Below are positions 3,958 to 42,902 of a stretch of DNA of 64,000 bases, one piece after another (within the stretch, counting starts at the first letter, position 1; each line of letters begins with the position of its first letter). The position numbers were made by a program, and so were the translations under genes. The stretch is from a virus. Location: IMG/VR virus record IMGVR_UViG_3300045988_174992, one strand, 5' to 3'. Below the pieces are notes generated by a model. That model did no database searches and was not told the origin of the DNA. It was given only the letters and a program-made list of their open reading frames with translations.

Positions 3958-4563
3958 TTACTTTATAAATTCTGAATCATCTATAGTACATATCTTATTC
4001 TCTTTAAATGATTTCTGTACATCTATGATTCTCTGATTAGTACTTCCTCTAAATGGTATTGTTATGTTTCTTTTTTCCTTTACATAAGGTCCATCAATTA
4101 TAACATCACAATTCTTAATTACTTCTTTATGAGGATAATTATTCAAATCTTCAATGAAATATCCCGTATAAAGCCAAATACTCTTTTCTGGATATCTCTT
4201 CTTTATATTAGAAAGAAACTTAGCAAGTTCTTCTAATGCTTGTACAGACTGATCTAATGGGTCACCGCCAGAAATTGTTACACCATCAATATGTTCATCA
4301 CCTATCAAATTCAATATCTTGTCTTTATAAGTGATGTTTGTATATGGTACCATATCATCTAACTTATGACCTTGAGCATATTTCCAAGTATGCTTATTCT
4401 GACAACCAGGACATGCATGTGTACATCCAGATACCCATATAGTTACTCTAAAACCAGGACCATTATTGATATCTGGACCAGTAACTGCTATGATATGTAA
4501 GCCGTTAGACTTGTCTATGTGCAAGTTGTTAGACTTGTCTATATGTAAATCTTTTGTTTCCAT
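3958..4563 (-). CDS. nrdG: anaerobic ribonucleotide reductase activating protein (radical SAM)
   Basis: Carries the CxxxCxxC cluster motif in GPGFRVTIWVSGCTHACPGCQNKHTW, followed by ISGGDPL. It lies next to nrdD. Confidence 0.85.
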   Translation of the reverse strand: METKDLHIDKSNNLHIDKSNGLHIIAVTGPDINNGPGFRVTIWVSGCTHACPGCQNKHTWKYAQGHKLDDMVPYTNITYKDKILNLIGDEHIDGVTISGGDPLDQSVQALEELAKFLSNIKKRYPEKSIWLYTGYFIEDLNNYPHKEVIKNCDVIIDGPYVKEKRNITIPFRGSTNQRIIDVQKSFKENKICTIDDSEFIK

Positions 4564-4577
4564 ATTTATAATATAGA

Positions 4578-4605
4578 ATCAGGATGAACTTAAGTTCACC
4601 CTGAT
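4578..4605 (-). other. intercistronic hairpin between nrdD and nrdG (processing or attenuation site)
   Basis: A 12-bp stem with a 4-nt loop. The single A-C mismatch on the plus strand becomes a G-U pair on the minus-strand RNA, so the structure is strand-specific. Confidence 0.4.
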
Positions 4606-4612
4606 TTGATTT

Positions 4613-5656
4613 TTAAATTAGATTTTGTTCTACATGCTTTAATCGTTTAGAAACTTCATCTTGTTTACCTTCATTCATATTGGAAACATCAGTACTAAGG
4701 TAACCAGTGACCATTCTTAGTTCCTCTATGTTATGGCTTCCACAATGTGGGCATGTTCCATTGAAATCACCTTTGCTATGACAATCTCGGCAGTAATCCA
4801 GTGGAAAATGCAAAGAGAAATATGGAAGATCCTTATCCATTGCATAAACCACTAATTCTTCACAAGCATCTATATTGTTAGTTGCTGAACTTGGCATTTC
4901 AACATAAGTGATGCATCCAGCATTACTGAACTTATCTAATTCACTTTCAATATCAATTTTCTTGAAGCAATCAATATCTTTATATACAGGTACATGAGTT
5001 GAATTTGTAAAGAATTTGTTATCATTATCAGTAACACCTTTAACATCATTACCATATTGTGCTCTGAATTTTGTCATTGCTGTCTTACAAAGTGATTCTC
5101 CTGGAGTCAAATATACTCCAAAATTCAACTTATCATTTTTCTTGAATTCTGCACATCTGTCATTGAATAGCTTTTCAATTCTCTTTCCAAGTTCAAGTCC
5201 TTGAGCTTCTGTCTGGTCACACCCAATCAATATTTGCAATGTTTCTGCTAATCCAATTTGTCCGATAGCTAATGTACCATGTTTCATAGCAGATACAGGA
5301 CCTTCTTCATGGATATATCCTACCATTGTATTGTTTGTCCACATGAATGGAGCAGACTTAGAATTCTGGCTGCAAATCAAAGTAAATCTTTCAAGAAGCA
5401 TTTCTCTTGCTTCATGGATCTTCTTATCAAGCAACTTCATGAATGTTTCTACTACATCTTTGCTACCAGATTCTTTTGCCATCATAGCTAAAGTAGGCAT
5501 AATGATAGTAACAGGGCAAATGTTTCCACGACCATCTTTTTGGTTTGCAGATAACATCCAATTGTCTTGTACTTTACCAGTTTCTGCTATCTTTTTAAAT
5601 ATTTCAAAGAAATAATTTGAATCACAATTGATATCATAACCATTATAAGTTCTACA
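4613..5656 (-). CDS. nrdD: anaerobic ribonucleoside-triphosphate reductase, exon 2
   Basis: Starts CRTYNG... The C-terminus has the Zn ribbon CRDC...CPHCGS and the glycyl-radical motif ELRMVTGYLS. Confidence 0.85.
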   Translation of the reverse strand, partial: CRTYNGYDINCDSNYFFEIFKKIAETGKVQDNWMLSANQKDGRGNICPVTIIMPTLAMMAKESGSKDVVETFMKLLDKKIHEAREMLLERFTLICSQNSKSAPFMWTNNTMVGYIHEEGPVSAMKHGTLAIGQIGLAETLQILIGCDQTEAQGLELGKRIEKLFNDRCAEFKKNDKLNFGVYLTPGESLCKTAMTKFRAQYGNDVKGVTDNDNKFFTNSTHVPVYKDIDCFKKIDIESELDKFSNAGCITYVEMPSSATNNIDACEELVVYAMDKDLPYFSLHFPLDYCRDCHSKGDFNGTCPHCGSHNIEELRMVTGYLSTDVSNMNEGKQDEVSKRLKHVEQNLI

Positions 5657-5953
5657 CATCTTATCTGTTATTACTAACAGGACTGACTATATGTTCCTTA
5701 TTATATAAATTGTATTTTCTATATATTAAGGCCTCACGCTCCGAATTGGTGCTTATCTCCAATTCTACTCCCTTACACTCATCAGGGATAGTCGATACAC
5801 CTTTATGACAATTAAAATTGTCAATTTAGCACGGATCTCATCCATCTATTATAAATGGACCTAACCGTTAGCAGCAGCTTATTTATTTTCTTATGCTGCC
5901 ACACCCATTAAGCATGGTTCGAGAGGTTTTAGATGGGCTGTAGTATTGCACTT
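5657..5953 (-). mobile_element. group I self-splicing intron (ORF-less, 297 nt) inside nrdD
   Basis: The conserved NrdD peptide STMG|CRTY is split here. The 5' exon end GAUGGGU (5960-5954) pairs with an internal guide GCCCAUC (5938-5932), giving a U-G wobble at the splice site. The intron ends in G before TGT. A GUAA-tetraloop hairpin lies at 5665-5680. The region is richer in GC than its surroundings. Confidence 0.85.
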
Positions 5954-7408
5954 ACCCATCGTGCTCATCACTTCATATCTAGTGAATTTCTCTGCTGGTT
6001 TTACTTTAATTTCCCAACTATCTTCAATAGAGTCATAATGACCTTCTAATGACAAATAATCTTCATAATCTGGATGTTCTGACAACCATTTAGCAAATGC
6101 ACAGTATGTTGATTTGGAGAAATTGAGCAAATTCTTCAATGCACGATTCTTTTGCTCTCTATCAAATATATTACCTTTCCAGTTAGTACTCCAATCAACA
6201 TTACAATAATTAGGATAATCACGTTGTGTTGTAGATTTCAATGCTAATCTGAACAAATCATAGTTAGGACCAGGATTATTTTTAGAGCCATGAATTTCTT
6301 TACTGTATTGGAATATGCAACATGGGAATATAGCAGTACGATGATACTTACCAGTACCTTCCAATGTCATATTGATTAATGCTCTAATTATTTCACGACC
6401 TTCCTTTAAAGTACATGTACCATAATTGATGCTAGAAAATGGCAGCTGGGCACCACTACGAGATTGCAAACTATTTAGATTATGACTCATTGCTTCAGTA
6501 GCTTGACTTAATTCCTTCAATGTAGAATTCCAAGCCTTCTTCCATATCATTTTCTTCAATGGTTTCAACAATCCAACACCGGTATAAATTCTATCATCAA
6601 CACTTATATGTTTGATTGATTTAGGATCAATGTTAGGTTTAGCCCACTTCATCAATGGAATTCCATCACACCAGTTTTTGTAATGCTTAAAGAAACTCTT
6701 ACGGAAATATGGTATCATTGACCAATCAAGATGTGATGCAGAAATACCACCAAACTGTTCAAGTGATTGTACTTGGAAATTTACAGCTATCAATTGGAAT
6801 GCCGTACTTAATGAATTAGCAGGACGAATATCACACTGTTTCAATGTAATACCATGTTCAAGAAGAATATCAATCGGATCAGTTAAACAATTATGCTGTC
6901 CAACTGCAAAATTTGATAAATCATGCTGATAAACCATATTTCCTTCATGATTCTTTCTTGCCATCTTCGACATGTTGTTTTTCAAAGCATAATCTTTACA
7001 AACAACTGCTCCAGCTTCACCAATACGGCCACTAAAGCTGTTTTCATCAAGATTGGCATTCTGGTTTACTACATTCTTGGCATAAAGTTTTGTAGCAATA
7101 TTCTTAGCAAGCTTTGTATTTGATTCTCGATACCTAGATCTCTCTTCTCGGTAAATGATGAATTGTTCTGCTGCTTCATTCTCTCCTACCGACATGAGGA
7201 AATCTCTCAAGAAATCTTGTACAGTCTCAATATCAACTACATCTTCTTTCATAGTTTCTAACCAAGCTCTTATTGATTCTGTAAACTTACTAATTAGTCC
7301 ATCAGGAACTTCTTTCTTCACTCCATTCTTATATACTTTTTCAAGTGCATGAATTGGTTTGTTAAGATCAAAGCCTTGGACTTTACCATCTCTTTTCTTT
7401 ACTTTCAT
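5954..7408 (-). CDS. nrdD: anaerobic ribonucleoside-triphosphate reductase, exon 1
   Basis: ATP-cone N-terminus (MKVKKRDGKVQGFDLNK...). The track ORF reads 20 codons into the intron before a stop. The exon ends ...YEVMSTMG. Confidence 0.85.
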
Positions 7409-15728: not shown

Positions 15729-15731
15729 AAA

Positions 15732-16562: not shown

Positions 16563-16587
16563 TATTTATATTTTAATCATTACAATT

Positions 16588-16619
16588 ATAATATAGAACA
16601 ATCTTTAAATATTTCAAAA
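16588..16619 (-). promoter_or_regulatory. Bacteroides-type -33/-7 promoter (phage promoter family)
   Basis: Minus strand reads TTTTGAAATATTTAAAGATTGTTCTATATTAT. Confidence 0.5.
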
Positions 16620-17411: not shown

Positions 17412-17422
17412 ATTTTAATATT

Positions 17423-18184: not shown

Positions 18185-18186
18185 AA

Positions 18187-18776: not shown

Positions 18777-18803
18777 TTCTATTTTCTATTTAAGAATAAA
18801 ACA

Positions 18804-19124: not shown

Positions 19125-19156
19125 TTTGATTATTATAATTATTATTTTTACATAAT

Positions 19157-19186
19157 AAATATAGAATTTCTTTCTTAAATTTCAAT
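19157..19186 (-). promoter_or_regulatory. Bacteroides-type -33/-7 promoter (phage promoter family)
   Basis: Minus strand reads ATTGAAATTTAAGAAAGAAATTCTATATTT. Confidence 0.4.
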
Positions 19187-19191
19187 AAAAT

Positions 19192-19662
19192 ATGATAATT
19201 TTTTCACAATATATATCAGAATCTTTGGAAATTGACTTGGGTTTCATCTTTGAAGCTAACAAGAAAATTTGGCCATTAAGGGATAAGAAGACAGGTACAT
19301 TCAAATATTCCCCAATAAGCATAATGACTGGAGATCATGTTGAAGATAGAAAATCAGAAAGAAAAGTTGATGATTCTGAAATCATAGATGCTATAATGGG
19401 TGCCAAATCAGATATATTAGGTATGTTGAAAGATGGTAAATTGAAAGTATCCCATTATGGTGAAAAGAAACCTATGACTTTTGTAATAATGGATGCAAGA
19501 AAAAACAAAAACTTGCCATTGACTGTTGTAGGGTTTGTTTCTTGGGCTGATCCTAAATTCAAGAAATGTAATGTAATAATCAAGACTGTAGGTAAGTATT
19601 CTAATTTTTCAAGTATCATGAGAAAAGATTCTGATAAAGAAAAACATATTCAATTGTATTAA
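19192..19662 (+). CDS. hypothetical protein (156 aa), possibly with a DUF4258/BrnT-like toxin-fold domain
   Basis: This is the only plus-strand gene in a minus-strand region. The segment GDHVEDRKSERKVDDSEIIDAIMGA...LTVVGFV...VIIKTV resembles the H...R..eRgi...ei pattern of DUF4258. Confidence 0.35.
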   Translation: MIIFSQYISESLEIDLGFIFEANKKIWPLRDKKTGTFKYSPISIMTGDHVEDRKSERKVDDSEIIDAIMGAKSDILGMLKDGKLKVSHYGEKKPMTFVIMDARKNKNLPLTVVGFVSWADPKFKKCNVIIKTVGKYSNFSSIMRKDSDKEKHIQLY

Positions 19663-21395: not shown

Positions 21396-21995
21396 CTAAA
21401 TGGCATTATCATGCTCTAATTTCCATTTAGGTGTTTCTTCAATAAATGTTGACACAAAATCATCTAATATATCTTCTGGTGTATCTGTATTGTCAATCAA
21501 CTTTACAATATCATCAGATTTCTTATATTCATTGAATAAACTTAAAATATTATCAATTTCCTTTTCTGTAAAATCTTGATTTTCTTTCAACAAATTTACT
21601 CGATCTTTATACTCTTCTGGATTTCTCCAAAGCATAATGTAATTAGTCAATTTGAAGTTTGCTTCAATTTCTCTACCAAAATACTTTTCTACCACATGTT
21701 CACGATCAAATAAATCTGCAAATACATTATCAGTAAGCAAAAGACGATCCATTACAATTGGTCTATCAGTACCATTCAACTTTGCCATTGTATATAAGTC
21801 ATCAAGTACTTTACGAATTGTTTTTCTAATCCACTCTTCAAATTTTTGTGGATTTTTATAATCTACTCTTTCTTTTTCTGCTGATACTGGATTATATACT
21901 AAAAAATCATCAAATCTATTCTTCAAATTTTCTAATAATGTTCCTTTGCCAGTCCTATCACAACCCTCAAGAACTATAATGCGAATTTTTTCCAT
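21396..21995 (-). CDS. tmk: thymidylate kinase-like dNMP kinase
   Basis: P-loop in IIVLEGCDRTGKGTL (compare the Tmk pattern EG.DG.GKST) and a following DR motif (MDRLLL). Confidence 0.65.
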   Translation of the reverse strand: MEKIRIIVLEGCDRTGKGTLLENLKNRFDDFLVYNPVSAEKERVDYKNPQKFEEWIRKTIRKVLDDLYTMAKLNGTDRPIVMDRLLLTDNVFADLFDREHVVEKYFGREIEANFKLTNYIMLWRNPEEYKDRVNLLKENQDFTEKEIDNILSLFNEYKKSDDIVKLIDNTDTPEDILDDFVSTFIEETPKWKLEHDNAI

Positions 21996-22120: not shown

Positions 22121-23350
22121 TTAGAATTTTGGCATATATTTTTCATACTTTTCAAATACAAATCTACGTTGTCTTTGAACAATCTCTCTATATAATGGTT
22201 CATTATTTTCTACTTTCTTAAGCTTATCAGCATAATCTTGTCCATTCTTACAATATGTATGTTCATATAACCAATCATCACACAATTCATGATTTGGATC
22301 AAAAGCTTCATCTACAAAACATACAATATCCATAAGCATCAAATCAAACCACCTTGGAGATATCTGATTACCTAATATACATTTGTTATGTGTTATCAAC
22401 GAAGACTTAGCATTTGATGGAACAAATTCCAACAAATCACGATAAGGCATATTTTTTACAAGCTCAATATCATGGTCAAAATCTATATGTTTAAAGAAAT
22501 TCTTATTACCTCCTTTAATTACTAAAAATGGTTTGTCAACTTTACTGTAAAATTCTTCTGTTCTAGCTATTCTATCTGAATCTTTAATATATCCATAATA
22601 GCAAGCAGAATACTTCTTATCATCAAAATCATAATTTCTCATTCTCAAATCCAAATCATCATTTAATGTGATGTAATAGTAAACATTAAAATTGAACCAA
22701 GACTTTGGCAATATCTTTATTCTATTCTCTTTAACATATTTATCATAATCTAATCCACAAAATGCTAAATCAAAATCATTTTCTATATTGCATATATCAT
22801 CATATCTAGATTCTAATAAAGATATTTCGTTTGCATAATTGTTTTCATTTATTCCATGGTTCCATGATGTTTTTAAATCTTTCTTTATAGCATGGCGATA
22901 AGTATGATGTCTAAAAAACCAAAGATTATATACTTCTGGATCATCATTAATGAATATAATTTTGTCATTTTGACCTTTTGATTTCCACCATTCATATATT
23001 CTATTCATACAAAATGGAAATGTCATAATAGCCATACCACCAAAATTATTTGTTTGAGCAGGAACAACCCACATATCATTTATATGATAATCTAGTAGCA
23101 AGTCTTTCTTTTCAATTCCATATATCAATGGACAATCTTTCAGTATGTTATTATATTTTTCACCGGAATTAGACAATGATGTTGCTAAAACATATACTTT
23201 ATCATATTTCAAAAACTCCGTCAAATATTTCCAATAATGATATACATTATACATTGTAATGTTATCTCTATTCACAAGTATATGTCTTACTGGTAATGTT
23301 ATACATGCTATTCTGCCCTTTCCATTAGGTTCTTCTATATGTTTAATCAT
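22121..23350 (-). CDS. T4 beta-glucosyltransferase (BGT)-like DNA glycosyltransferase
   Basis: Block-wise resemblance to T4 BGT as I recall it: VVPAQTNNFGG vs VVNSSINFFGG; KIIFINDDPEVY vs KIYYLFTDIRLPF; CYYGYIKDSDR vs VIYGGSFRSGQR; ISPRWFDLMLMDIVCFVDEAFDPNH vs ITLRVWETMASDAVMLIDEEFDTKH. Confidence 0.6.
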   Translation of the reverse strand: MIKHIEEPNGKGRIACITLPVRHILVNRDNITMYNVYHYWKYLTEFLKYDKVYVLATSLSNSGEKYNNILKDCPLIYGIEKKDLLLDYHINDMWVVPAQTNNFGGMAIMTFPFCMNRIYEWWKSKGQNDKIIFINDDPEVYNLWFFRHHTYRHAIKKDLKTSWNHGINENNYANEISLLESRYDDICNIENDFDLAFCGLDYDKYVKENRIKILPKSWFNFNVYYYITLNDDLDLRMRNYDFDDKKYSACYYGYIKDSDRIARTEEFYSKVDKPFLVIKGGNKNFFKHIDFDHDIELVKNMPYRDLLEFVPSNAKSSLITHNKCILGNQISPRWFDLMLMDIVCFVDEAFDPNHELCDDWLYEHTYCKNGQDYADKLKKVENNEPLYREIVQRQRRFVFEKYEKYMPKF

Positions 23351-23406: not shown

Positions 23407-24000
23407 TTACTTATAGATTTCAAGTTCATCTTTATCCATCAGCATTAGTTGATATAATATATCTGCAAATCCTCCATGTCCACCTTGATATTTAGAAACA
23501 TAGTGAAAAAATTGCTTTATATATTCAAAGCAATTATCTGTAGTAGCACATATATTTGCTTTTGATGCGGCATTCAAATCACTTGGACTATCACCAATAA
23601 AAGCAACAATGTATCCAGCATCTCTGCATTTCCTAACCATTTCTTCTCTTTCTTTTGAATTTGCATTTGTAGCATGTAACATGAAAGAATTACTTATTCT
23701 TCTATCTGTAATATTACCTCCAGTCTTATCATCTGTTACGAATAAGAATTCCCATCCAAGATCCTTAGCAATATTAAATAATTCCTTATCATGGCAACCA
23801 TAAGTCTTGAATCGTTTTCTGTTTTCATCATAAGTCATATTTCCATCTGTCAATATGCCATCACAATCAGAAATTATGATTTTCTTCATATTGATATATT
23901 CTAAGGTATGCTTGGACTTAAAATAATCAGCCCAAGTCAAACCTTCTTTCAATATTATTCTTGATGTTTTGAATTTACTTTTTTCCATTAGTACATTCAT
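23407..24000 (-). CDS. KdsC-type HAD-IIIA sugar-phosphate phosphatase
   Basis: Motif I in IISDCDGILTDG, plus the C-terminal FIGDSPSDLNAA. The true start may be the internal MKKIIISD. Confidence 0.65.
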   Translation of the reverse strand: MNVLMEKSKFKTSRIILKEGLTWADYFKSKHTLEYINMKKIIISDCDGILTDGNMTYDENRKRFKTYGCHDKELFNIAKDLGWEFLFVTDDKTGGNITDRRISNSFMLHATNANSKEREEMVRKCRDAGYIVAFIGDSPSDLNAASKANICATTDNCFEYIKQFFHYVSKYQGGHGGFADILYQLMLMDKDELEIYK

Positions 24001-25447
24001 TAATTATATTAGACAATCCAGAAATAGCATACTCAAATACAATATTCAATTTCATAATATCTTTTGCAAAGATTGGAAGCATACTAAGCAAATGAAGATA
24101 AATAGCTGTTTCAATAAACACATCACAATCTTCTATTTTTGGAAGTTCATCTACTTTATATGTCATTTCCTTTCTCAAAGCATCATCCAATCCAATCTCT
24201 ACCATATAAGCTTCTGATTGGTCAACAATTGGATGACAGAAAAATGATCCATTTCTTCTTGATATTGGATTATACAGTTTAATATCTCCAGTCATATTTA
24301 CAAGAACATTATGCGAATTGATGTTTCCATGAGTCAGTACCCATTCATCATTCGCTAAACCATCTATGAGAATATCACATGCATTATCTATAAGTGTTTG
24401 AATTTCTGCAAATGTTATGTTATTTTCAAAAAGCCTACGTGTATCACAAATTCCCTTCAATGGTTTACCATTATATTCTTCTAACAGAAATTTTACTGAA
24501 TATGACAATGGCACATCTACTTTATATCTTACAAAATCATTTAAAAGATTGGTAAGATTTATCTTTGATGCATGTGTATATCCTTCAAGATTATGCATAT
24601 CACAAGCATATCCATCTTCTGTCTTACTTACTGGCATATCTACAACATAATCACTAATTCCAGGATTATAAGATAAGAAAGAAGTCCAATCATACTGATA
24701 GTTCAAATGCTCATTTGTTTTTGATACGTATTGCATAGATTCTTTATCAGTATATGAAACCTCCATATCAGTAGGTAAAACCAAATCTTTCTGATAAGAA
24801 GTTGACATGATCTTCTTATATTCTGATAATGACTTATATTCAGTTATTTTTGTATTGATATTTGATTCAACAAAAGTAATCATACCATCATTTACTTTTT
24901 CTTGAATAATATCAATCAAATCTTTATTTTCATCACATGGCTTAGTTGGAATAACCTCTGAAATATCTTTGATCCAAAAAATACCTGGAACATTTCCATC
25001 ATAAGCAAATGATCTGTTTACAATCTTACCATCTTCTATATTATATCGATATTTTGCATCATTTACAGTAAAAATCACACAATTGTCTTTATCTTCAATT
25101 TTTCTATCCAATTTGAATTCATCATTATCAAACAAAATATCTGACCAGAAAAACAAAACATTCTTCTTTGGAAGCCAATCATATACAGAAGCTAAAGTAT
25201 TGCCTGAACCATTAGTATTGTTTGATACAATCACATCAACATTAAGATGATTGATTTCAATATAAGCTTTCATGATATTTGCAAACTTTTTATTTACAAC
25301 AATACTTATTGTATTTGCTTCATCAAAATAATCTAATTGCTTAATCAAAATTGGTGTTCCATCTTTTGATGGTAACAATATTTTAGGAAAACAAGAAAGT
25401 TCATTAAATCTGGTCTGTAATCCACCAGCTACTATTACAACATTCAT
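23975..25447 (-). CDS. bifunctional sugar-1-phosphate nucleotidyltransferase / kinase-like protein
   Basis: The N-terminal VVIVAGGLQTRF...PKILLP is the NTP-transferase G-loop. The C-terminal LTHGNINSHNVLVN...DIKLYNP resembles the APH/choline-kinase catalytic loop, but the usual Asp is Asn. Confidence 0.6.
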   Translation of the reverse strand: MNVVIVAGGLQTRFNELSCFPKILLPSKDGTPILIKQLDYFDEANTISIVVNKKFANIMKAYIEINHLNVDVIVSNNTNGSGNTLASVYDWLPKKNVLFFWSDILFDNDEFKLDRKIEDKDNCVIFTVNDAKYRYNIEDGKIVNRSFAYDGNVPGIFWIKDISEVIPTKPCDENKDLIDIIQEKVNDGMITFVESNINTKITEYKSLSEYKKIMSTSYQKDLVLPTDMEVSYTDKESMQYVSKTNEHLNYQYDWTSFLSYNPGISDYVVDMPVSKTEDGYACDMHNLEGYTHASKINLTNLLNDFVRYKVDVPLSYSVKFLLEEYNGKPLKGICDTRRLFENNITFAEIQTLIDNACDILIDGLANDEWVLTHGNINSHNVLVNMTGDIKLYNPISRRNGSFFCHPIVDQSEAYMVEIGLDDALRKEMTYKVDELPKIEDCDVFIETAIYLHLLSMLPIFAKDIMKLNIVFEYAISGLSNIINECTNGKK

Positions 25448-25459: not shown

Positions 25460-26572
25460 TTATAAATTATTAATATTAATATAGAAACATCTATCACATG
25501 ATTTCATATTATATGAATTCATATCATATTGTTCCTTTGTTATGGCAAATTGACATCTTGCTTTTGGTGACATCATTTCCCATAAAGTTGCATGATTTAT
25601 GAAGTCTAAATCTTCAAAATAAGGAACAACCACATATTCTGATGACAACATAGTGAAATGTGTATTTCTATCAGTTGGTAATTTGATGAAAACAACATTT
25701 GAATTGAATTTCTTTTTCAAATCTTCCATAGCACCACTGTTGTTTGGATCTGTATAATACACAATAACTACATCGGCATAGTCATAATTGATATATGAAA
25801 TGACATCATCCACTTTATACCCTTCATCAGTCAATCTATAAGGAATATAATAAATAGAATAAGTACCTGTATCAAGACTATTAACTGTTTTAATAGTATC
25901 TTTCAATCCAAAATCTGTCATATAATCAAAATATTTCAGATTACGGTCAACCATCATATAATAAGGGTATATTGAACAATTTGGTAATGAAAATTTCTTT
26001 AATTGTGTTGGACTTTCTACAATTGACCAATCAGAAAGTTGAAACAATTTAGTATTCAAAATGTCATATCCCTCTAAGAAATTTCTTGTATGTTCATTAT
26101 CAATCTTACAAACTGGGCACCAGAAAACCTTTTCAAGTCTTCTAAACCAATATTGATCGCACAATAGATTTCCTAAGAATTGACTTTCAAATATTACAAT
26201 ATTAAAATCATTACCATTATCTGGATTGTTTATAAGTTCAAACAATTCCATTTCCATCTTACCCACAACATCATAATCACTTCTTTGTTCACCTGCATGC
26301 TTACCAAAATTATCTGACCAAATGATTTTAATGTTATCATTGTCTTTTATCCAACTATCAACAATATCATGTGATTCATTATTTTTTGGAAGCAATATTG
26401 TTAAACTTTTGAAATTCTTATGATGTTCAAAAAATGTAATGAAACGTACTACATTTCCATCACTATCTAAATTATACTTATTAGTCTCTCTATTAATAGA
26501 AGATATAATAGGTATGTACAAGATATTCTTATCTTGCATGTGATCGTCTACAAATTTCTTATCTATTGTCAT
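25460..26572 (-). CDS. hypothetical protein (370 aa), possible second glycosyltransferase
   Basis: The start ATG at 26572 overlaps the upstream stop (ATGACAATAGATAA). The operon position suggests a role in the sugar pathway, but no firm motif was found. Confidence 0.3.
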   Translation of the reverse strand: MTIDKKFVDDHMQDKNILYIPIISSINRETNKYNLDSDGNVVRFITFFEHHKNFKSLTILLPKNNESHDIVDSWIKDNDNIKIIWSDNFGKHAGEQRSDYDVVGKMEMELFELINNPDNGNDFNIVIFESQFLGNLLCDQYWFRRLEKVFWCPVCKIDNEHTRNFLEGYDILNTKLFQLSDWSIVESPTQLKKFSLPNCSIYPYYMMVDRNLKYFDYMTDFGLKDTIKTVNSLDTGTYSIYYIPYRLTDEGYKVDDVISYINYDYADVVIVYYTDPNNSGAMEDLKKKFNSNVVFIKLPTDRNTHFTMLSSEYVVVPYFEDLDFINHATLWEMMSPKARCQFAITKEQYDMNSYNMKSCDRCFYININNL

Positions 26573-26882
26573 GATCCTTTTCTTGCAATTTACATGATAC
26601 TTCATGAATAATATTGAATATGCTATCAATAAGATAGTCAAATTCTTCTTTATATTCACTACAAAGCCTTGAACCTTCTAATTGCTTATGTACATTTTTC
26701 ATTACATGATTCCATCTGTCTGGTTGTACAATAGGTTCACATGCTTTCTTCTTAACTCTTCCTATCAATATAGCATTATTCATTCTAGAAATCAAGAGGT
26801 TAACCAATGATCGGTCACCTCTTGTAATTTCTGCTCTACATGATTTGAGAAGTTTCAAATCCGAGTTAGTTATGTTAGTCAT
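26559..26882 (-). CDS. hypothetical protein (107 aa), translationally coupled to the U32-family gene
   Basis: The start ATG at 26882 overlaps the upstream stop (ATGACTAA). The longer track ORF 26559-27014 overlaps the U32 gene and is not credible. Confidence 0.5.
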   Translation of the reverse strand: MTNITNSDLKLLKSCRAEITRGDRSLVNLLISRMNNAILIGRVKKKACEPIVQPDRWNHVMKNVHKQLEGSRLCSEYKEEFDYLIDSIFNIIHEVSCKLQEKDHDNR

Positions 26883-28020
26883 ACAAATTATGTTCTTTAG
26901 CAAATTGTTCACAATAACGACAAGAATAACCACATTCATGGTTTTCACATTCCCATCCATTTCCATCCATCCACTTATTGATGAATCCATCAAGTTTCTT
27001 ATTTGGAATATCAATATCTGTTTTAGACTTCAATTCTGTCTTACCATCATAAATCGAGGAAAGAGGTTTCCATAATCCGAGAAGATTTCCATCATAAGTT
27101 TCTGACATATAAGCATTCATTATATATTCAAGATACTCAGTTGTTCCTGTTCTTCCTGATAACTTAAAATAATTTACTCCTGTTTTTTCTCGATAAATTT
27201 TCTGATCCTCTGGTCTAATCCATCGCATTCTTAGCCAAGCTTCTGGAGTAGATGAACGTGCAGACATACAATAACCCATTGGATAATTATTGTAAGACAT
27301 ACTATCCTCTTTTGTTTTGTTACATGCATGACAAAGATAACAAGAATCTCTGAATACACAATGAGTAGCATAATGATTTCCATTTGCATCTACTCCGGCA
27401 ACACCACAAAATTCATTTGCCATACATTCTAATATGCAACCATTTCTATCACAATAATCTTGTGCTTTAATCAAAAATTCCTTATTACGATTCTTAAGAA
27501 TTGAATTACAGAACTTATTTACTCCAAATGTTTCATGATAATACTTCAACTGGGTTACAGTATCAATATGAGAAATACATGACATCTCAATTTCAATATC
27601 CGATACTTCTCTAATAAAAAGCAACATCATTGGATTTGCCACAGTAATACGTACTACACCAATATTTTCAAGCCATTTTACAAGATCCTGAATATCCTTC
27701 TTATGATTCAACATCTCTATCTTTGAACCATAAGGTTGAATTGAATTCATTGTATAGTTGAATGCAATATTGTTATTCTTCAACTTCTTTACATAATTTG
27801 CAAAGAATTCTTTATCAATATCTGGCAATCTCCAACCTGGTCTTGCAGTTACTGCTTCATTACTTGCATCAGATCCAAAAAATTCTACAATCTGTGACTT
27901 ACCCTTATATTTCTTATTCAACTCTACAGCAACATCAATCAATTTAGGATCGAAATTACAACCTACTTTATAAAAGTTCATGTTCTTGTTACTGTAATCA
28001 AAATTAGGTTTCCAACTCAT
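26875..28020 (-). CDS. peptidase-U32-family Fe-S enzyme (RlhA/TrhP/UbiU-like)
   Basis: Blocks VRITVANPMMLLFIRE, IEMSCISHIDTVTQLKYY and NYFKLSGRTGTTEYLEYIMNAY match the U32 pattern as I recall it from E. coli YegQ (...DALIMSDPGLIMLVRE, IHLSVQANAVN, LKIEGRTKS.YY). It also has the Cys cluster ECMANEFCGV...HCVFRDSCYLCHAC and a C-terminal CENHECGYSCRYC. Confidence 0.6.
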   Translation of the reverse strand: MSWKPNFDYSNKNMNFYKVGCNFDPKLIDVAVELNKKYKGKSQIVEFFGSDASNEAVTARPGWRLPDIDKEFFANYVKKLKNNNIAFNYTMNSIQPYGSKIEMLNHKKDIQDLVKWLENIGVVRITVANPMMLLFIREVSDIEIEMSCISHIDTVTQLKYYHETFGVNKFCNSILKNRNKEFLIKAQDYCDRNGCILECMANEFCGVAGVDANGNHYATHCVFRDSCYLCHACNKTKEDSMSYNNYPMGYCMSARSSTPEAWLRMRWIRPEDQKIYREKTGVNYFKLSGRTGTTEYLEYIMNAYMSETYDGNLLGLWKPLSSIYDGKTELKSKTDIDIPNKKLDGFINKWMDGNGWECENHECGYSCRYCEQFAKEHNLYD

Positions 28021-29267: not shown

Positions 29268-30341
29268 TTGAAAATGAAGTACAATGGAACAAACTACATT
29301 ACTGAACTGAAATCTATAGAATATATAGTAGAGAAGAACAGTAACAGTAAAGTAGAAAATCATACACAATTTACTAAGCTTAAGAAAGTAGAAAGAATAA
29401 TATTGATAGGTGAACTTTACTTGAATTCAGTAAAGATGCTTAAGAGAGATAAGATAAAAGTAGAATATGCAGATCCAACTAAGCTCAATTTTTCTTTCAA
29501 AGATGATAAGGTACATATATACAGTGGAGAGAAAGATTTACCTGATATAGTACTTACTAAAGCAGATTCTAAGAATACCATAGTATTGATGCGTAGTGGA
29601 TATACTAAGGAAGTGATAGCAGCTTTACTTGATGCCATCCAAGAATTAGATATACTGATATTGAACAACCAAGAAGCAGTAGCTATGTCATCTGACAAAT
29701 ATGCAACTGCATGTTTCTTGACAAAATCAGAACTTCCACAGCCAAAGTATGTACTTGCAACTTCTAGTGATATAGATAAAGAAGATCATAAGAAGCTAGA
29801 TGAAAAGCTAAAGCAACTCTATGGTAAGCTGGATGACGAATTAAAGTATGTTTGCAAGATATTGAATGGTCATGGTGGTAAAGGTGTATTTTGCTGTCGC
29901 GGAAAAAACATTGTATCTATATTGCAATGTTTGTTCAAACTGAAAGAAAACTGCCCTATACTCATACAAGACTTTCAAGAAATAAAAGATGGTGATATCA
30001 GAGCTCATGTACTTACATTGAATGGAAAGCAAAAGATATTGTCTTCTATCATGAGAAAGAAGGGAAAGGATTTCCGAACTAATCTCAGTCTTGGGTGTGA
30101 TATGGAAGATAATTACAAGATGACTCCAGAACAAGAAAAACTAGCTTTAGATGCTGCTAAAGCATCTGGATTGGAATGGTGTGGTGTAGATATGCTGCCA
30201 TTACAGAATGGAAATACTATAATAGTAGAATTGAATGGTGCACCAGGACCAAGTTCACCTATCAATGATCCTAACATAGAAGAAAATAATTTTAAGTTCT
30301 TCGAAAAGCTAGTAGAAGCTATAAATGAACTTTGTAAATAA
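29268..30341 (+). CDS. RimK-family ATP-grasp ligase (paralog 1)
   Basis: KILNGHGGKGVFCC, IQDFQEIKDGDIRAHVL, DFRTNLSLGC and GVDMLPLQNGNTIIVELNGAPG match the RimK pattern (GS.G.GV, iQeyi...g.DiR, fRsN...GG, GVD......V.EvN.sPG). Confidence 0.8.
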   Translation: MKMKYNGTNYITELKSIEYIVEKNSNSKVENHTQFTKLKKVERIILIGELYLNSVKMLKRDKIKVEYADPTKLNFSFKDDKVHIYSGEKDLPDIVLTKADSKNTIVLMRSGYTKEVIAALLDAIQELDILILNNQEAVAMSSDKYATACFLTKSELPQPKYVLATSSDIDKEDHKKLDEKLKQLYGKLDDELKYVCKILNGHGGKGVFCCRGKNIVSILQCLFKLKENCPILIQDFQEIKDGDIRAHVLTLNGKQKILSSIMRKKGKDFRTNLSLGCDMEDNYKMTPEQEKLALDAAKASGLEWCGVDMLPLQNGNTIIVELNGAPGPSSPINDPNIEENNFKFFEKLVEAINELCK

Positions 30342-32091
30342 AATGGAAAAGGAATATAAGAATATAGAAAATGCAAACATAAATGAAGCAATGGCGCTTC
30401 TGAAAAATGATACCAAGTTAGAGATAAAGAATGTAATATGCTTCTATGTTGGAGAAAATAAAGTAAAGAGCTATGATGAGGCAGTAAAAGAAAAAGAAGA
30501 AGATTGGTCTTATCAAGACTATTTGACTATTTGCTGTCATAAGAGAAAGCTGAATCTTGTATGGTTGAATAAAGCTACGGTACGATTTACCTATTCTAAT
30601 CATATCATATCTATAGATGATGATATAACAGATATGCATTTCTCATTGAAGCATTCTAATATTCATGATACTATCATATTTCAAGGTCAGGCCAATGATG
30701 ACAATAAGAAAAACTATATTGGATTGATGAGAGCATTTGAATATGAAGGTTTCTTCATGCTGAATACTATAGATGAAATCATCATAGCATCTGACAAGTA
30801 TCTTGCATCTAACTTGCTAGCCAAAGAGAATATTCCACAACCTGGATATGTATTGATAACAAAAGAATTGATGGAAGACTTGAATACTGAATGCCATGAT
30901 ACTAGAGAAAGTTTCTGGAAGATGCTTGATTCTATTTATAAAGATAATGAGAACATAAATGAACTGAAAGAAAACAGGCAATATGTAGTAAAGATATTGA
31001 ATGGCAGTCTTGGTATTGGTGTATTCATTTGTAATCATGATGAAATAGAAGGAATACTGCAAGCAATGTTTACTGTTGACAAAGAAGCAGAATTCATCAT
31101 ACAAGAATATAAAGAGAATACTGGAGACATTCGTGTACATGCATTTTCTGTTGATGGTGCCAATTATGAGATACTTGCTTGCATGAAACGTGATAAGATA
31201 AGTGGTGACTTCAGAAGCAATGTTTCATTAGGAGCTAAGACTGAAGAATATCAGATGACAGACAAACAAAAAGAAATTGCATTGAAGGTCGCTAAGCTTT
31301 CTGGATGCAGATGGGTTGGTATTGACTTGATGGCTTGTACTGATGGAGACTTTGTTATAGAATACAATTCAAGTCCTGGTGTTCAAGGAATATCCCAACA
31401 AATCAAGCATAACATGTTTGATATTGTGATAGATAAGATAGAAGCATACATGAAGAATAATGCTATATATTATACTGATGACTTTGAATTTGGTCAAGAC
31501 AAAGGCAGATGCTTTACATCATACAATAAAGACACTATTCTTGAACTTTGGGAGCATGATTGGTCATTCATATCTAGCAAGAGACAAGAAGTAATGTACA
31601 ACTGCTTACTTATGCAACCAGGTCTTTTCTATAAGATACATGGTAAAGACAAACCAGAATATGGATTAGATTGCTCTGGATACATCAAATATGTAATGAA
31701 GAAGGCATTGAATGTAAAGACACCTAACATGTGTGTTGACTTCTTCACTATATTTACTGATAATGATTGGGAAAGAATATCTGTTGATGATCTTAAGCCT
31801 GGTGATATAGGTGTAAAGAATGAATCTACTATATTGAATCACTGTGGTATATATGCAGGTGCAGGAAAATGGTTTGATACTTCTTATCTTTATGGAGTAC
31901 AATTATCTGACTATTCACACTTCAAATACTTCTTTAGAATAAAGAATATAGATACTGATGCTTTGGGAGAAAAGACTGATCATTTAGTAAGAAAACTCAT
32001 TTCTTCTGGTGTATTGCCAAGACCAGAAGATGAAATAACTGTTGCTCCATCCACTATTGGTGACCCATTAGTAGTATCAATAGATTCATAG
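30325..32091 (+). CDS. RimK-family ATP-grasp ligase (paralog 2) fused to a C-terminal NlpC/P60 cysteine peptidase
   Basis: ATP-grasp blocks: KILNGSLGIGVFIC, IIQEYKENTGDIRVHAF, DFRSNVSLGA and GIDLMACTDGDFVIEYNSSPG. NlpC/P60 blocks: YGLDCSGYIKYVM...LKPGDIG...NHCGIYAG. The start may be the ATG at 30343. Confidence 0.8.
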   Translation: MNFVNKMEKEYKNIENANINEAMALLKNDTKLEIKNVICFYVGENKVKSYDEAVKEKEEDWSYQDYLTICCHKRKLNLVWLNKATVRFTYSNHIISIDDDITDMHFSLKHSNIHDTIIFQGQANDDNKKNYIGLMRAFEYEGFFMLNTIDEIIIASDKYLASNLLAKENIPQPGYVLITKELMEDLNTECHDTRESFWKMLDSIYKDNENINELKENRQYVVKILNGSLGIGVFICNHDEIEGILQAMFTVDKEAEFIIQEYKENTGDIRVHAFSVDGANYEILACMKRDKISGDFRSNVSLGAKTEEYQMTDKQKEIALKVAKLSGCRWVGIDLMACTDGDFVIEYNSSPGVQGISQQIKHNMFDIVIDKIEAYMKNNAIYYTDDFEFGQDKGRCFTSYNKDTILELWEHDWSFISSKRQEVMYNCLLMQPGLFYKIHGKDKPEYGLDCSGYIKYVMKKALNVKTPNMCVDFFTIFTDNDWERISVDDLKPGDIGVKNESTILNHCGIYAGAGKWFDTSYLYGVQLSDYSHFKYFFRIKNIDTDALGEKTDHLVRKLISSGVLPRPEDEITVAPSTIGDPLVVSIDS

Positions 32092-40896: not shown

Positions 40897-42225
40897 TTAT
40901 TTTAGATATTTTAATTCTTTCAAATACTTTGTACAAATTGCATTTCCATAAAGATAAGCAATTACACTCTTCATTGGATCATTTATGATATATGAAGTCA
41001 ATTTCATCCAAATAATACCAACGATAATCTTTATATTTGTATCAATTGGCATATCATCCAAATCAATTTGTGTAATTGAAGAAAAATCACCGGATGGATA
41101 TTTCAATTTAAGATTCATACCATCAGAATAATCAATTTCTTCAATTGTAACATAAGGAGCACTATTGAATCTTGAATATCCATTAAGTCCATAGCAGAAT
41201 TTTGCAATATCATATTCTGCCATTCCTAATCCAATTGTCTTAAGGTTTCCAAAATATCCACGTGGATCAATAAAGATTACATTACCATCTTTATCAATCA
41301 TTGTATTATCTGTATTTGGATCACCGTGACAAAGGCATGCATTGAAATTGACTTCATTATTCTCATACCATTTCTTTAATGCATCCATCAATACATTAAA
41401 ATGTGTTGTAATTGGCATGTAATCAATACATCTTACTTCAGTTTCCTCAATGAAATAATCAATCAGTTTCTTACATGGATTTACTCTAGTATATACTTTT
41501 CCAATTAATTCATTATAGAATGCTCTTCTGATATCTTCATCTTCATCATCTACATCTATATCAACATCATTAATAGTATGTAAAGCTTTGATTACATTAG
41601 AAATCAATTTCTTAAAATCTCCATTTTTGTAATACCATTCTTGTGCTGTTACTCCATCGATTTTATTCAAAATCAATTCATGTTTGTTTTCATCATATCC
41701 TTGTTTTCCACACAAACATGGTATATTGCTATATCTGTCATAGAAATCATTTTCAATCTTTTGTAATTTGATAGCATCTTCTGTTTTTGCAATCTTAATT
41801 ACTTTATCATCTTCAATTTTAATCTGATTGAAATATCTGCATGTATTTTTAGTTGACAAATCCCTAAGATATTTCTTTTGGTCAAATTCATCTCTAATAC
41901 CTCTATCCCAACATTCAATAGAAAAAGTTTTTGTCAAATCACCCATCCTATCAATTTCAGAAATTACATGTACTCTATCATAATATTCTCTATTATGGCA
42001 AAGAAATGAATTTAACAACTCAGCATATTCATGAAATGCCTCATAAACATAAATATCACCATCATATTTATCAAGCAACTCATCAATTTTTCTTTCAATT
42101 ATAGTTTTTTCTCCATCTGTAACCAAGTAAAATGGAAAAACCAACTCTAAATTAAGCTCCATATAATGGCTTTCTGGATAATGTGACTGAACAACAAATA
42201 AACAATTCTTTTTCATTTTCATCAA
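40897..42225 (-). CDS. protein-kinase-fold small-molecule (sugar/choline-type) kinase
   Basis: CLCHGDPNTDNTMIDKDGNVIFIDPRGYFG is the canonical H.D....N ... D catalytic and Mg-binding pattern of APH/choline-kinase-like enzymes. The ~130-aa N-terminal domain is unknown. Confidence 0.6.
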   Translation of the reverse strand: MMKMKKNCLFVVQSHYPESHYMELNLELVFPFYLVTDGEKTIIERKIDELLDKYDGDIYVYEAFHEYAELLNSFLCHNREYYDRVHVISEIDRMGDLTKTFSIECWDRGIRDEFDQKKYLRDLSTKNTCRYFNQIKIEDDKVIKIAKTEDAIKLQKIENDFYDRYSNIPCLCGKQGYDENKHELILNKIDGVTAQEWYYKNGDFKKLISNVIKALHTINDVDIDVDDEDEDIRRAFYNELIGKVYTRVNPCKKLIDYFIEETEVRCIDYMPITTHFNVLMDALKKWYENNEVNFNACLCHGDPNTDNTMIDKDGNVIFIDPRGYFGNLKTIGLGMAEYDIAKFCYGLNGYSRFNSAPYVTIEEIDYSDGMNLKLKYPSGDFSSITQIDLDDMPIDTNIKIIVGIIWMKLTSYIINDPMKSVIAYLYGNAICTKYLKELKYLK

Positions 42226-42240: not shown

Positions 42241-42272
42241 AATATAGACTAGTTTCTTAAGGTATTCAAAAG
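42241..42272 (-). promoter_or_regulatory. Bacteroides-type -33/-7 promoter inside the 3' end of the SIS gene
   Basis: Minus strand reads CTTTTGAATACCTTAAGAAACTAGTCTATATTAG. Confidence 0.4.
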
Positions 42273-42902
42273 ATTAGTGACTTTTGATTGTAATGTTCCG
42301 GATGGATGACTCTTTTGTAATCTTTCACACATTTTTACTATGCCAAGCTCTTCTGATTTGAATGCACCAGATATAGCTGTGGACATTACTGCTTCAAATA
42401 TTATGTTTGATGTAGCCGGTACAATCCCAAATCCATCCAACTCTCCTGGATCTGTTTTTATATGACAGATGAAATCAATATCTTTGCATGACCTTACTTT
42501 ATTCAATTGCATTTCATTTGACATGCAAATCATTACAACTTTGCATTTTGGACGCAATTGTTTCATGTATTTAAACAACACATAAAGTTCATTTGAACAC
42601 CCGGATTTTGACATGGCGATCAACAAAGATGGTTTGTCAACTGAAATAGGTCCTAAATCCCCATGTCCTGCTAAGCATGCATCTATGAATTGTCCATCAA
42701 CCATTATTGATTTCAATGTAGCAGCATTCTTTTGTGCTATATATCCTGGCTTACCTATTCCTGTAATATATATTGTTTGATTGTCTAATATAGCTTCTTT
42801 AATCATATCAGAAAGAATGTTTATGTTTTTCATGGACCCAACGTCATTCCTCATTGTATTTAATGAAGCCAAGCAATCATTTATGAAATCGAAATTTATC
42901 AT
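42249..42902 (-). CDS. SIS-domain sugar-phosphate isomerase, KdsD/KpsF (arabinose-5-phosphate isomerase) type
   Basis: ITGIGKPGYIAQKNAATLKS matches G.GKSG.I..K.aaT, and AMSKSGCSNEL matches S.SG.T.E. There are no CBS domains. Confidence 0.65.
   Translation of the reverse strand: MINFDFINDCLASLNTMRNDVGSMKNINILSDMIKEAILDNQTIYITGIGKPGYIAQKNAATLKSIMVDGQFIDACLAGHGDLGPISVDKPSLLIAMSKSGCSNELYVLFKYMKQLRPKCKVVMICMSNEMQLNKVRSCKDIDFICHIKTDPGELDGFGIVPATSNIIFEAVMSTAISGAFKSEELGIVKMCERLQKSHPSGTLQSKVTNLLNTLRN

Follow-up and report, generated by a model that had tools for sequence, protein, structure and literature searches.

A phage U32-family protein coupled to a chorismate mutase as a likely oxygen-independent module for cytosine hydroxylation in DNA hypermodification

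What is a gene of the peptidase U32 family doing beside a DNA glycosyltransferase gene in a phage of the human gut? The window analysed here, 64,000 nucleotides in length, belongs to the 276,731-bp genome of a giant gut phage from a human-gut metagenome, a phage known from metagenomes only. A sequence-only reading of the window had proposed that the U32 protein is an O2-independent hydroxylase which makes the acceptor hydroxyl for a 5-hydroxypyrimidine O-glycoside, and every computational test run supported this inference. As that reading also claimed, a class III (anaerobic) ribonucleotide reductase is encoded (3958..7408, minus strand; Pfam NRDD, ATP-cone, Gly_radical and Fer4_12), with NrdD split into two ORFs (5891-7408 and 4613-5659) and the activase NrdG at 3958-4563. 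Its description of the U32 gene as the first of the operon could not be established, as three small ORFs precede the gene on the same strand. Scans of the window gave no Rfam matches at gathering thresholds, and promoters and terminators at shuffle level only.

The 381-aa product of 26875..28020 (minus strand) is a divergent, phage-type U32-family protein, an assignment made from sequence and resting on Pfam, PHROG, fold and motifs. The ORF was confirmed, and the U32 blocks quoted in the earlier reading, VRITVANPMMLLFIRE, IEMSCISHIDTVTQLKYY and NYFKLSGRTGTTEY, are all present together with both cysteine clusters; the family hallmark takes the form K286-x-x-G-R290. The suggested Pfam check upheld U32 membership, though the match to Peptidase_U32 (PF01136) is partial and marginal, covering only aa 109-170 and lying just over the cut-off (24.2 bits, E 2.3e-5, against 22.4 bits). 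For orthologues the score rises to 42 bits, spanning profile positions 2-192 of 233, most of 120 metagenomic relatives carry a precomputed PF01136 match, and PHROG 5757 'peptidase' matches the full length of the protein (E 1.5e-111). The names given in databases are 'peptidase', 'collagenase' or 'protease'. Using hhalign, FKLSGRTGTTEY was aligned onto LKIEGRTKSFYY of TrhP and FKIEGRYKDMSY of RlhA, the latter being the best E. coli match (E 1.5e-4, 206 columns). No long hhalign alignment was obtained against the single E. coli UbiU, UbiV and TrhP sequences, only short matches of low probability, and the phage U32 family profile found no relevant match among PDB sequences. This profile gave 1400 matches in 1.84 billion representatives, leaving the bulk of cellular U32 proteins out of reach. 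Structure gave the same answer: an AF2 model (pLDDT 84.5, pTM 0.88) gave 5D88, the U32 protein Mk0906, as its top Foldseek match in the PDB (E 4.4e-7, TMt 0.67), and model and match together satisfy the U32 TIM-barrel fold. 5D88 is reported to be the sole solved U32 structure.

Cysteine conservation was counted across 131 diverse members of the family. C205, C221 and C251 are ~100% conserved, position 227 is Cys in 72 members and His in 58, and the C-terminal C358, C363, C367 and C370 are at least 95% conserved. C200, C230 and C233, likewise quoted in the earlier reading, are lineage-specific. The conservation suggests two putative metal sites, C205/C221/C227/C251 and C358/C363/C367/C370, for which there are no cluster-binding data. 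The spacing at the first is CX15CX5CX23C in the phage protein whereas the U32 family has CX6CX15CX3/4C.

The stop codon of the U32 gene overlaps the ATG of a 107-aa ORF (26559..26882, minus strand) by 8 nt (ATGACTAA), and the translational coupling previously proposed for this pair held. The same reading had called the 107-aa protein unknown, which did not hold. It is a chorismate mutase of the AroQ type (type II), a prephenate-generating enzyme, with catalysis inferred from the sequence. The CM_2 profile (PF01817) matches at 50.6 bits (cut-off 27; E 2.4e-13) over all of its positions (1-80 of 80), and 13 NCBIfam chorismate mutase models also match, every one under its cut-off. The EcCM residues R11, R28, K39, S84 and Q88 are conserved and R51 is retained, while E52 is replaced by W. 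The mutase stop codon in turn overlaps the ATG of a 370-aa glycosyltransferase gene by 14 nt, so that the three genes are, judged by these overlaps, translationally coupled. Prephenate is the established oxygen donor for UbiU/V and is required by TrhP and RlhA, and none of the U32 proteins has so far been shown to hydroxylate in vitro (PMC10990095).

Further genes for prephenate supply were found in related loci. DAHP synthase-chorismate mutase fusions adjoin U32 in L008, L012, L035 and L037 (the U32 protein of L008 is 83% identical to that of the window), the two enzymes are separate genes in L039, and L035/L036 carry the whole shikimate pathway. A reading of the DAHP_synth_1 genes as KDO8P synthases was disfavoured, the fusion to chorismate mutase and the full shikimate set making DAHP synthase the better reading. 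A CmoA/Cx-SAM role for prephenate was likewise set aside, there being no CmoA-like methyltransferase among the window ORFs scanned. The DAHP synthase and shikimate genes of the relatives fit a stoichiometric use of prephenate, each genome copy containing about 85,000 cytosines. The dependence of the phage U32 protein on prephenate is nevertheless an inference with genomic support only, namely the coupled mutase and these genes in relatives. It counts against the proposal that the chorismate-mutase-like proteins of T4-like phages are without R51.

The 370-aa protein (25460..26572, minus strand) has no Pfam match. It was reached by jackhmmer from the SF, AM101 and RL38J1 glycosyltransferases at E about 1e-75, and profile-profile hhalign gave a probability of 99.6% (E 5.5e-24, 302 columns). 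Its family, which includes RB69 gp46:47, DLP3 gp79 / AM101 gp73 and RL38J1 gp215, is that of the base-proximal DNA glycosyltransferases specific to glycosyl-5-hydroxycytosine (5hoC) systems; membership is shown and activity is inferred from it. Next to it on the minus strand, as are all the genes that follow, lies a 490-aa protein with a sugar-1-phosphate nucleotidyltransferase domain (23975..25447) resembling the N-terminal domain of AfhE / RB69 gp52:53. NCBIfam nucleotidyltransferase models match its aa 1-127, PHROG 4098 matches too, and tblastn with aa 4-155 of the SF NT/kinase gave E 1e-10. A HAD phosphatase like KdsC and KDN-9-P phosphatase (23407..24000) matches NF058599 (E 1.4e-15) and KdsC models, all under cut-off. 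Its only jackhmmer links were with HADs from U32-only clusters, the SF and AM101 HADs not being reached, and it is probably a functional counterpart of AfhF / RB69 gp51, not an orthologue. A second, 409-aa glycosyltransferase-like protein (22121..23350; Glyco_trans_1_2, E 0.0016; PHROG 7922 beta-glucosyltransferase, E 1e-7) is confined to the window lineage by jackhmmer and could possibly add a further sugar. The thymidylate-kinase-like (TMK-like) nucleotide kinase at 21396..21995 (PHROG 761, E 6.9e-10) is of the RB69 gp45 family, which jackhmmer found in almost every locus and which is near-universal in 5hoC clusters.

Two more genes of the sugar branch sit 14 kb away from the U32 operon. An arabinose-5-phosphate-isomerase-like SIS protein (42249..42902), homologous to RB69 gp55, was found by tblastn with the SF isomerase (E 3.5e-11; Pfam SIS 21.7 bits, under cut-off). 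The other encodes an APH-fold kinase (40897..42225; Pfam APH 24.3 bits), found with aa 195-507 of the SF NT/kinase (E 1.5e-29) and homologous to the kinase domain of AfhE / RB69 gp52:53, the arabinose-5-P 1-kinase of the published pathway (PMC13326640). The NDP-arabinose branch is thus represented by isomerase, kinase and nucleotidyltransferase, and the identity of the sugar is merely inferred because the phosphatase is a different, KdsC-like HAD. DNA carrying arabinosyl- and hexosyl-5hoC was published in 2025-26, with the pathway given by the RB69 and DLP3 cluster (PMC13326640). No GenBank phage matched the operon by megablast. By homology the operon is a version of the arabinosyl-5hoC cluster of RB69 and DLP3, though the content of the DNA is itself inferred.

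In RB69 and DLP3 the hydroxyl is introduced by a ThyA homolog, the 5hodCMP synthase, recognised by a D169N signature. No such homolog was found in the 64-kb window, nor in its left flank, which showed only DnaK/DnaJ, nor within +-10 kb of the cluster in related contigs; ~201 kb of the 277-kb genome lie outside the scan. None of 54 5hodCMP-synthase loci in IMG/VR is on a U32-only contig, in a scan resting on two peptide motifs, and the sole ThyA near a U32-only cluster (in L037) is canonical (D169, N177). ThyA-family genes adjoin glycosyltransferase-1 in 61 of 64 loci, and in the window lineage it is U32-chorismate mutase that occupies this position. This suggests that the pair has replaced the ThyA-type synthase at the slot, which we consider likely without being able to exclude a ThyA-type gene elsewhere in the genome. 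Within the window there is no hydroxylase candidate other than U32.

A set of 53 dereplicated loci was used to examine co-occurrence. Of the 24 loci with U32, 20 also have chorismate mutase, against none of the 29 without U32 (Fisher p = 5e-11). The two genes are always on the same strand and are adjacent in 38 of 43 loci, and a CM_2 protein is also found in Shewanella phage Thanatos (TH1_066). The ThyA homolog is present in 374 GenBank phage records, 57 of them from Acinetobacter and 20 from Rhizobium phages, and 222 records have U32, all those listed being phages of Enterobacterales or Shewanella. Phages of strict aerobes have the ThyA homolog only (AM101 has no U32 or chorismate mutase within +-20 kb) and T4-like phages of facultative anaerobes have U32 and the ThyA-type enzyme together. 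Mosigvirus (the RB69 group) and Marfavirus carry U32 without chorismate mutase, and in E. coli Dhakaviruses the cluster is present without U32, which must therefore be dispensable there. The distribution between phages of strict aerobes and those of Enterobacterales or Shewanella fits the proposed anaerobic route through U32; the Mosigvirus, Marfavirus and Dhakavirus cases count against it.

We propose that U32 and its coupled chorismate mutase form an O2-independent, prephenate-dependent module for hydroxylation of cytosine at C5 in DNA hypermodification. What the data show directly is which families the proteins belong to, how the genes are coupled and arranged, and how they are distributed among phages; the chemistry, the base, the sugar and whether the substrate is a nucleotide or DNA are inferred, and on this footing the proposal is likely. 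It is strengthened by the identity of the chorismate mutase, the 5hoC-specific glycosyltransferase family and the ThyA synthase missing from the window. The human-gut source of the phage and its class III reductase also speak for it. Host chorismate would be converted to prephenate by the mutase, and the U32 Fe-S enzyme would use prephenate as hydroxyl donor to place OH on cytosine C5, the substrate most likely being dCMP and the product 5-hydroxy-dCMP. The TMK-like kinase and host kinases would then give the triphosphate for incorporation at replication. The 370-aa glycosyltransferase would put the first sugar on the 5-OH of the DNA, probably arabinofuranose judging by the isomerase, kinase, phosphatase and nucleotidyltransferase genes, and the 409-aa protein may extend the chain. 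The module would stand in for the FMN/O2-dependent ThyA-type synthase of RB69 and DLP3, and in T4-like phages of facultative anaerobes the two would be anaerobic and aerobic isozymes. On balance we lean, with less assurance, towards the bolder reading that here, for the first time, a prephenate-dependent hydroxylase acts on DNA precursors (or on DNA), as an anaerobic isozyme of 5hodCMP synthase. Against the proposal, there is no biochemistry or genetics, and U32 enzymes are known to act on rRNA, on tRNA and on a prenylated quinone precursor but neither on deoxynucleotides nor on DNA. The marginal Pfam score of the window protein, its divergent cysteine spacing and the failure of the family profile to reach most cellular U32 proteins also weigh against it.

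The most serious rival keeps the chemistry and moves it to the polymer, U32 hydroxylating cytosines in replicated phage DNA instead of dCMP. The characterised nucleic-acid U32 enzymes, RlhA and TrhP, all act on polynucleotides, the closest E. coli relative of the phage protein is the one that makes 5-hydroxycytidine, and the window yielded neither a dCTPase nor a dNMP kinase. However, U32-chorismate mutase fills the slot of a mononucleotide-level enzyme, every U32-only cluster keeps the TMK-like nucleotide kinase, and dUTPase and dCMP deaminase genes surround some of these clusters, and we consider action on the polymer unlikely. Still less probable is that the pair modifies RNA (ho5U34 in tRNA or ho5C in rRNA) so as to adjust translation, with the DNA-modification genes mere neighbours. 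The nucleic-acid functions of U32 proteins linked by experiment are indeed on RNA. Against this, a tRNA scan of the window came back empty, glycosyltransferase-1 and the TMK-like kinase stay syntenic with the pair across several divergent phage lineages, and the pair is translationally coupled into the glycosyltransferase; moreover, catalytic amounts of prephenate would suffice, leaving phage DAHP synthase and whole shikimate pathways unexplained.

A role for U32 on the sugar branch or on another heterocycle, not as a base hydroxylase, gains some support from Table 1 of Lee et al., where RB69 gp50 is listed as 'sugar or heterocycle reductase' (PMC13326640), and from RB69-type phages, whose ThyA homolog alone is enough for 5hoC in E. 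coli. It is very unlikely given that Acinetobacter phages make the same arabinosyl-5hoC without U32, that U32-only clusters would be left with no hydroxylase, and that the coupling to chorismate mutase, DAHP synthase and shikimate genes would go unexplained. A true collagenase-type peptidase, with the mutase an unrelated auxiliary metabolic gene (AMG) for aromatic amino acids, can be all but discounted. It is favoured by the database names and by a rumen virome paper placing chorismate mutase among amino-acid AMGs, but none of the characterised U32 proteins of this type is a protease, conservation extends to the metal-ligand cysteines, and co-occurrence with chorismate mutase is strict, with overlapping reading frames.

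Returning to the hydroxylation module, the phage protein shares with RlhA, TrhP, UbiU and UbiV the U32 domain, TIM-barrel, K-x-x-G-R motif, cysteines in an equivalent region and a genomic link to prephenate, and RlhA too hydroxylates cytosine at C5. It differs in forming a separate compact subfamily (about 360 aa) without the Peptidase_U32_C domain, with spacing CX15CX5(C/H)X23C and an extra invariant C-terminal CX4CX3CX2C, and in lying in a phage DNA-modification operon where it would act on a deoxynucleotide or on DNA and the stoichiometric demand would be on the scale of the genome. The Straboviridae protein RB69 gp50 (NP_861740; PHROG 5757) is orthologous: it lies in the same cluster, shares the invariant cysteines and is 45-49% identical along its whole length. 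In RB69-type phages it coexists with a ThyA-type synthase, whereas the window protein is coupled to chorismate mutase and has no such companion within the window. Beyond its Table 1 label no role is assigned to gp50 in the literature searched, which did not include He 2026 or Mahler 2025. The ThyA-homolog synthases with D169N (RB69 gp48, DLP3 gp80 and RL38J1 gp216) share with U32 the proposed product, 5-hydroxy-dCMP, and the position by glycosyltransferase-1 and the TMK-like kinase, yet are unrelated in fold and chemistry, using FMN and O2 (18O2 is incorporated) rather than Fe-S and prephenate. The likely, though inferred, relationship is one of apparent non-orthologous displacement. The E. 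coli pairs UbiI/H/F and UbiU/V, and TrhO and TrhP, follow the same logic of an O2-dependent and a U32/prephenate enzyme for one product; here the enzymes are phage-encoded and serve DNA hypermodification, and phages of strict aerobes and of gut anaerobes keep one arm each. The CmoA/CmoX carboxymethylcytosine pathway of Synechococcus phage S-B43 is also a prephenate-dependent DNA modification borrowed from RNA-modification enzymes, but converts prephenate to Cx-SAM and involves no U32 protein and no hydroxylation. The type of modification foreseen in the earlier reading is by now a known product class, glycosylated 5hoC; novelty of the route held, the U32/prephenate route alone being new and seemingly undescribed. 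No paper tying a phage U32 protein or chorismate mutase to DNA hydroxylation was found in the literature searched (He 2026 Nat Chem Biol and Mahler 2025 Cell Host Microbe not covered).

Glycosylated 5hoC is a newly recognised anti-restriction DNA modification whose sole known biosynthesis requires O2, yet many of its carriers, among them RB69-like coliphages and the present gut jumbo phage, multiply in anoxic guts. The U32/prephenate route, if true, would resolve this paradox and would add DNA to RNA and quinones as targets of prephenate-dependent hydroxylation. The use of one prephenate per cytosine would explain the chorismate mutase, DAHP synthase and complete shikimate pathway in gut phages, and would account for the presence of 'aromatic amino acid' auxiliary genes in gut and rumen viromes. 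A soluble nucleotide substrate would provide the first tractable in vitro hydroxylase assay for U32 chemistry, and the route would be relevant to phage therapy and engineering in anaerobic conditions.

The 381-aa product of the ORF at 26875..28020(-) is placed in the U32 family by its motifs, by PF01136, by PHROG 5757 and by its predicted fold. The U32 motif blocks and Cys clusters picked out in the sequence-only reading held, all being present in this ORF. The PF01136 profile was matched above cut-off but only marginally and in part (24.2 bits, cut-off 22.4, aa 109–170 only). Orthologues matched it at 42 bits with most of the profile covered, a precomputed PF01136 match was present in most of 120 metagenomic relatives, and the protein belongs to PHROG 5757 over its full length (E 1.5e-111). 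Using hhalign, the FKLSGRTGTTEY block was aligned to the LKIEGR block of TrhP and RlhA, and RlhA, the 5-hydroxycytidine synthase, gave a 206-column alignment (E 1.5e-4). E-values from small local databases are indicative only. The best PDB match of the AlphaFold model (pLDDT 84.5, pTM 0.88) was 5D88, the sole solved U32 structure (E 4.4e-7, TMt 0.67), the other matches being generic TIM barrels.

An exhaustive profile search returned 1400 representatives at 50% clustering, 247 of them at E<=1e-30, and showed that the phage U32 type is a sizeable subfamily of its own, which stays apart from most cellular U32 proteins. Conservation was counted over a diverse set of 131 full-length members. C205, C221 and C251 were essentially invariant. 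Position 227 held Cys in 72 members and His in 58, as one would expect at a metal-binding site, though this is inferred from sequence alone without metal-binding data. The C-terminal CX4CX3CX2C motif was at least 95% conserved and the hallmark residues K286 and R290 were invariant. The Cys spacing is unlike the CX6CX15CX3/4C published for the family (PMC6747719).

The adjacent 107-aa protein (26559..26882(-)) had been read as an unknown. This failed, as the protein is an AroQ chorismate mutase. It matched PF01817 over its full length (E 2.4e-13) and 13 NCBIfam chorismate mutase models, all under their curated cut-offs, and the E. coli chorismate mutase (EcCM) residues R11, R28, K39, R51, S84 and Q88 are kept. 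The small ORF is already named 'chorismate mutase' in some GenBank records. The U32 stop and the ATG of this ORF share 8 nt, and its own stop runs 14 nt into the next gene, past that gene's ATG. Prephenate is the product of chorismate mutase. Labelling has established that UbiU/V take their oxygen from prephenate, and TrhP and RlhA require it (PMC10990095). Chorismate-mutase-like proteins of ∼80 aa in T4-like phage loci (L002 9134-9391, L017 11131-11403, L024 11161-11400) have neither EcCM Arg51 nor the helix 2-3 segment; they could be weaker enzymes or prephenate-binding partners. No chorismate-mutase-like ORF was found at the U32 locus of Mosigvirus (the RB69 group) or Marfavirus.

The U32 protein was found by tblastn in 222 GenBank phages (45–49% identity), those listed all having Enterobacterales or Shewanella as hosts, and arabinosyl-5-hydroxycytosine DNA is now known from these phages (Lee et al., NAR 2026, PMC13326640). 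In the published 5-hydroxycytosine (5hoC) pathway, 5hodCMP comes from a ThyA homolog, RB69 gp48, which uses FMN, incorporates 18O2 and has the signature D169N; the sugar is made by an arabinose-5-P isomerase, an AfhE-type kinase/nucleotidyltransferase and the AfhF phosphatase, and DNA is the substrate of the glycosyltransferases (PMC13326640). The U32 orthologue RB69 gp50 appears there only as a table entry, 'sugar or heterocycle reductase', and prephenate, chorismate and U32 are not mentioned.

On homology, the window holds counterparts of the pathway genes, the ThyA homolog excepted. These are the 370-aa base-proximal glycosyltransferase, glycosyltransferase-1 (25460-26572(-); jackhmmer E ∼1e-75, hhalign probability 99.6%), a nucleotidyltransferase-domain protein (23975-25447(-)), a KdsC-like HAD phosphatase (23407-24000(-)), a second glycosyltransferase (22121-23350(-)), a TMK-like kinase (21396-21995(-)), an AfhE-kinase homolog (40897-42225(-)) and an arabinose-5-P isomerase homolog (42249-42902(-)). 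The HAD of U32-only clusters (that of the window was compared with L001 7566-7952) is KdsC / KDN-9-P-phosphatase-like and shows no relation to the AfhF-type HAD found in RB69 and Acinetobacter phages. It is the second pathway component to be replaced by a non-orthologous one, and this leaves it possible that the sugar is something other than arabinose.

No ThyA-family gene was detectable in the 64-kb window, ∼201 kb of the phage genome lying outside the scan. The exact U32 protein was found on a 276,731-bp human-gut contig, k127_125124 of ENA ERZ919512, and related IMG/VR contigs (148–294 kb) carry the same U32-chorismate mutase-glycosyltransferase operon with no ThyA found within ±10 kb of it. 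A motif-based IMG/VR scan with the 5hodCMP-synthase profile gave 54 loci, including the T4-like contigs which also have U32; no U32-only contig was among them. A ThyA-family gene adjoins glycosyltransferase-1 in 61 of 64 loci whereas in the window lineage U32-chorismate mutase adjoins it instead. The sole ThyA close to a U32-only cluster, at the related locus L037, has D169 and N177 and is a canonical thymidylate synthase.

Co-occurrence was classed in 53 dereplicated locus groups, which are not phylogenetically independent and of which only flanks were examined. The D169N-type ThyA homolog occurred alone in 25 groups, with U32 and chorismate mutase in 12 and with U32 but without chorismate mutase in two (Mosigvirus, Marfavirus). 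U32 and chorismate mutase without a 5hodCMP-type ThyA were seen in eight groups, U32 alone in two, and a canonical-type D169 ThyA without U32 or chorismate mutase in four (L090-L095). Thus chorismate mutase was present in 20/24 groups with U32 versus 0/29 without (Fisher p = 5e-11, kinship ignored).

In four related loci, L008 (U32 83% identical), L012, L035 and L037, a chorismate mutase fused to DAHP synthase lies directly beside U32; in a fifth, L039, the two are separate genes. L035 (ENA ERZ920188 scaffold_349) and L036 (ERZ27280567 k141_715825), with U32 70% identical, encode at 9000-19300, besides the DAHP synthase-chorismate mutase fusion, a DHQ synthase, a shikimate kinase, a fused DHQase-EPSP synthase, a chorismate synthase and a shikimate dehydrogenase. 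From gene content this appears to be a complete phage-borne shikimate route to prephenate beside U32. An investment of this size fits a co-substrate used stoichiometrically; there are ∼85,000 cytosines per genome copy at 30.6% GC. Between U32 and the TMK-like kinase of L035 (12364-13194) lies a 276-aa protein with weak DndB / GmrSD_N-like matches (E ∼1e-3 to 2e-4), conceivably an anti-defence or DNA-modification-sensing component.

Elsewhere in the window, the anaerobic RNR gene nrdD (4613-7408(-)) is in two ORFs of 505 aa and 348 aa with ∼230 nt between them (5660-5890), where no Rfam intron family was found at gathering thresholds; an intron, a split gene or a pseudogene are each possible. 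Divergent from the U32 block are two adjoining RimK-type ATP-grasp ligase genes (29268-32091(+)), the second fused to an NlpC/P60 peptidase domain. HSP70/DnaK-like and DnaJ-like chaperones lie just outside, beyond window position 1 on the same contig (L097 11691-14778). Two giant ORFs at 53101-63549(-) (2172 aa and 1277 aa) had no Pfam match at all, and the exact 1277-aa product had no record in the contig index searched. Some features point weakly to a Bacteroidota host, though the host is not determined: an OmpA-domain protein and a faint match of GldM type (19745-20875(-) and 50960-51574(-)), and in relatives the position of chorismate mutase at the C-terminal end of DAHP synthase.

In the proposed route, chorismate mutase would turn chorismate into prephenate and U32 would oxidise cytosine at C5, capturing the hydroxyl freed on prephenate decarboxylation, a mechanism proposed in PMC10990095, while electrons would exit via the putative Fe-S site or sites of U32. 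The 5hodCMP would then be phosphorylated and built into DNA at replication, and its 5-OH glycosylated by glycosyltransferase-1. Since the ThyA slot is replaced and the kinase retained, we lean towards a nucleotide-level substrate, but direct action on DNA is not excluded. Base, sugar and chemistry are all inferred, without experiments. Glycosylated 5hoC is an already known product class; neither the U32/prephenate route nor what the chorismate mutase, DAHP synthase and shikimate genes mean in phages was described in the literature searched, which did not include He et al. 2026 or Mahler et al. 2025.

The ThyA homolog occurs in 374 phage records of GenBank, 57 of which are from Acinetobacter phages and 20 from Rhizobium phages, and neither host was represented among U32 carriers in the GenBank listing. 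Phage AM101 has the cluster with U32 and chorismate mutase absent within ±20 kb. As a counter-example, E. coli Dhakaviruses lack U32, which indicates that U32 is accessory where the ThyA homolog exists. Inferences about host and oxygen are drawn from the human-gut origin of the sample and from the class III RNR. The phyletic pattern resembles the UbiIHF/UbiUV and TrhO/TrhP pairs of an O2 enzyme versus a U32 enzyme: only the O2 enzyme is found in phages whose hosts are strict aerobes, both are often present where the hosts are facultative anaerobes, and in the gut phage U32 alone was seen in the regions examined.
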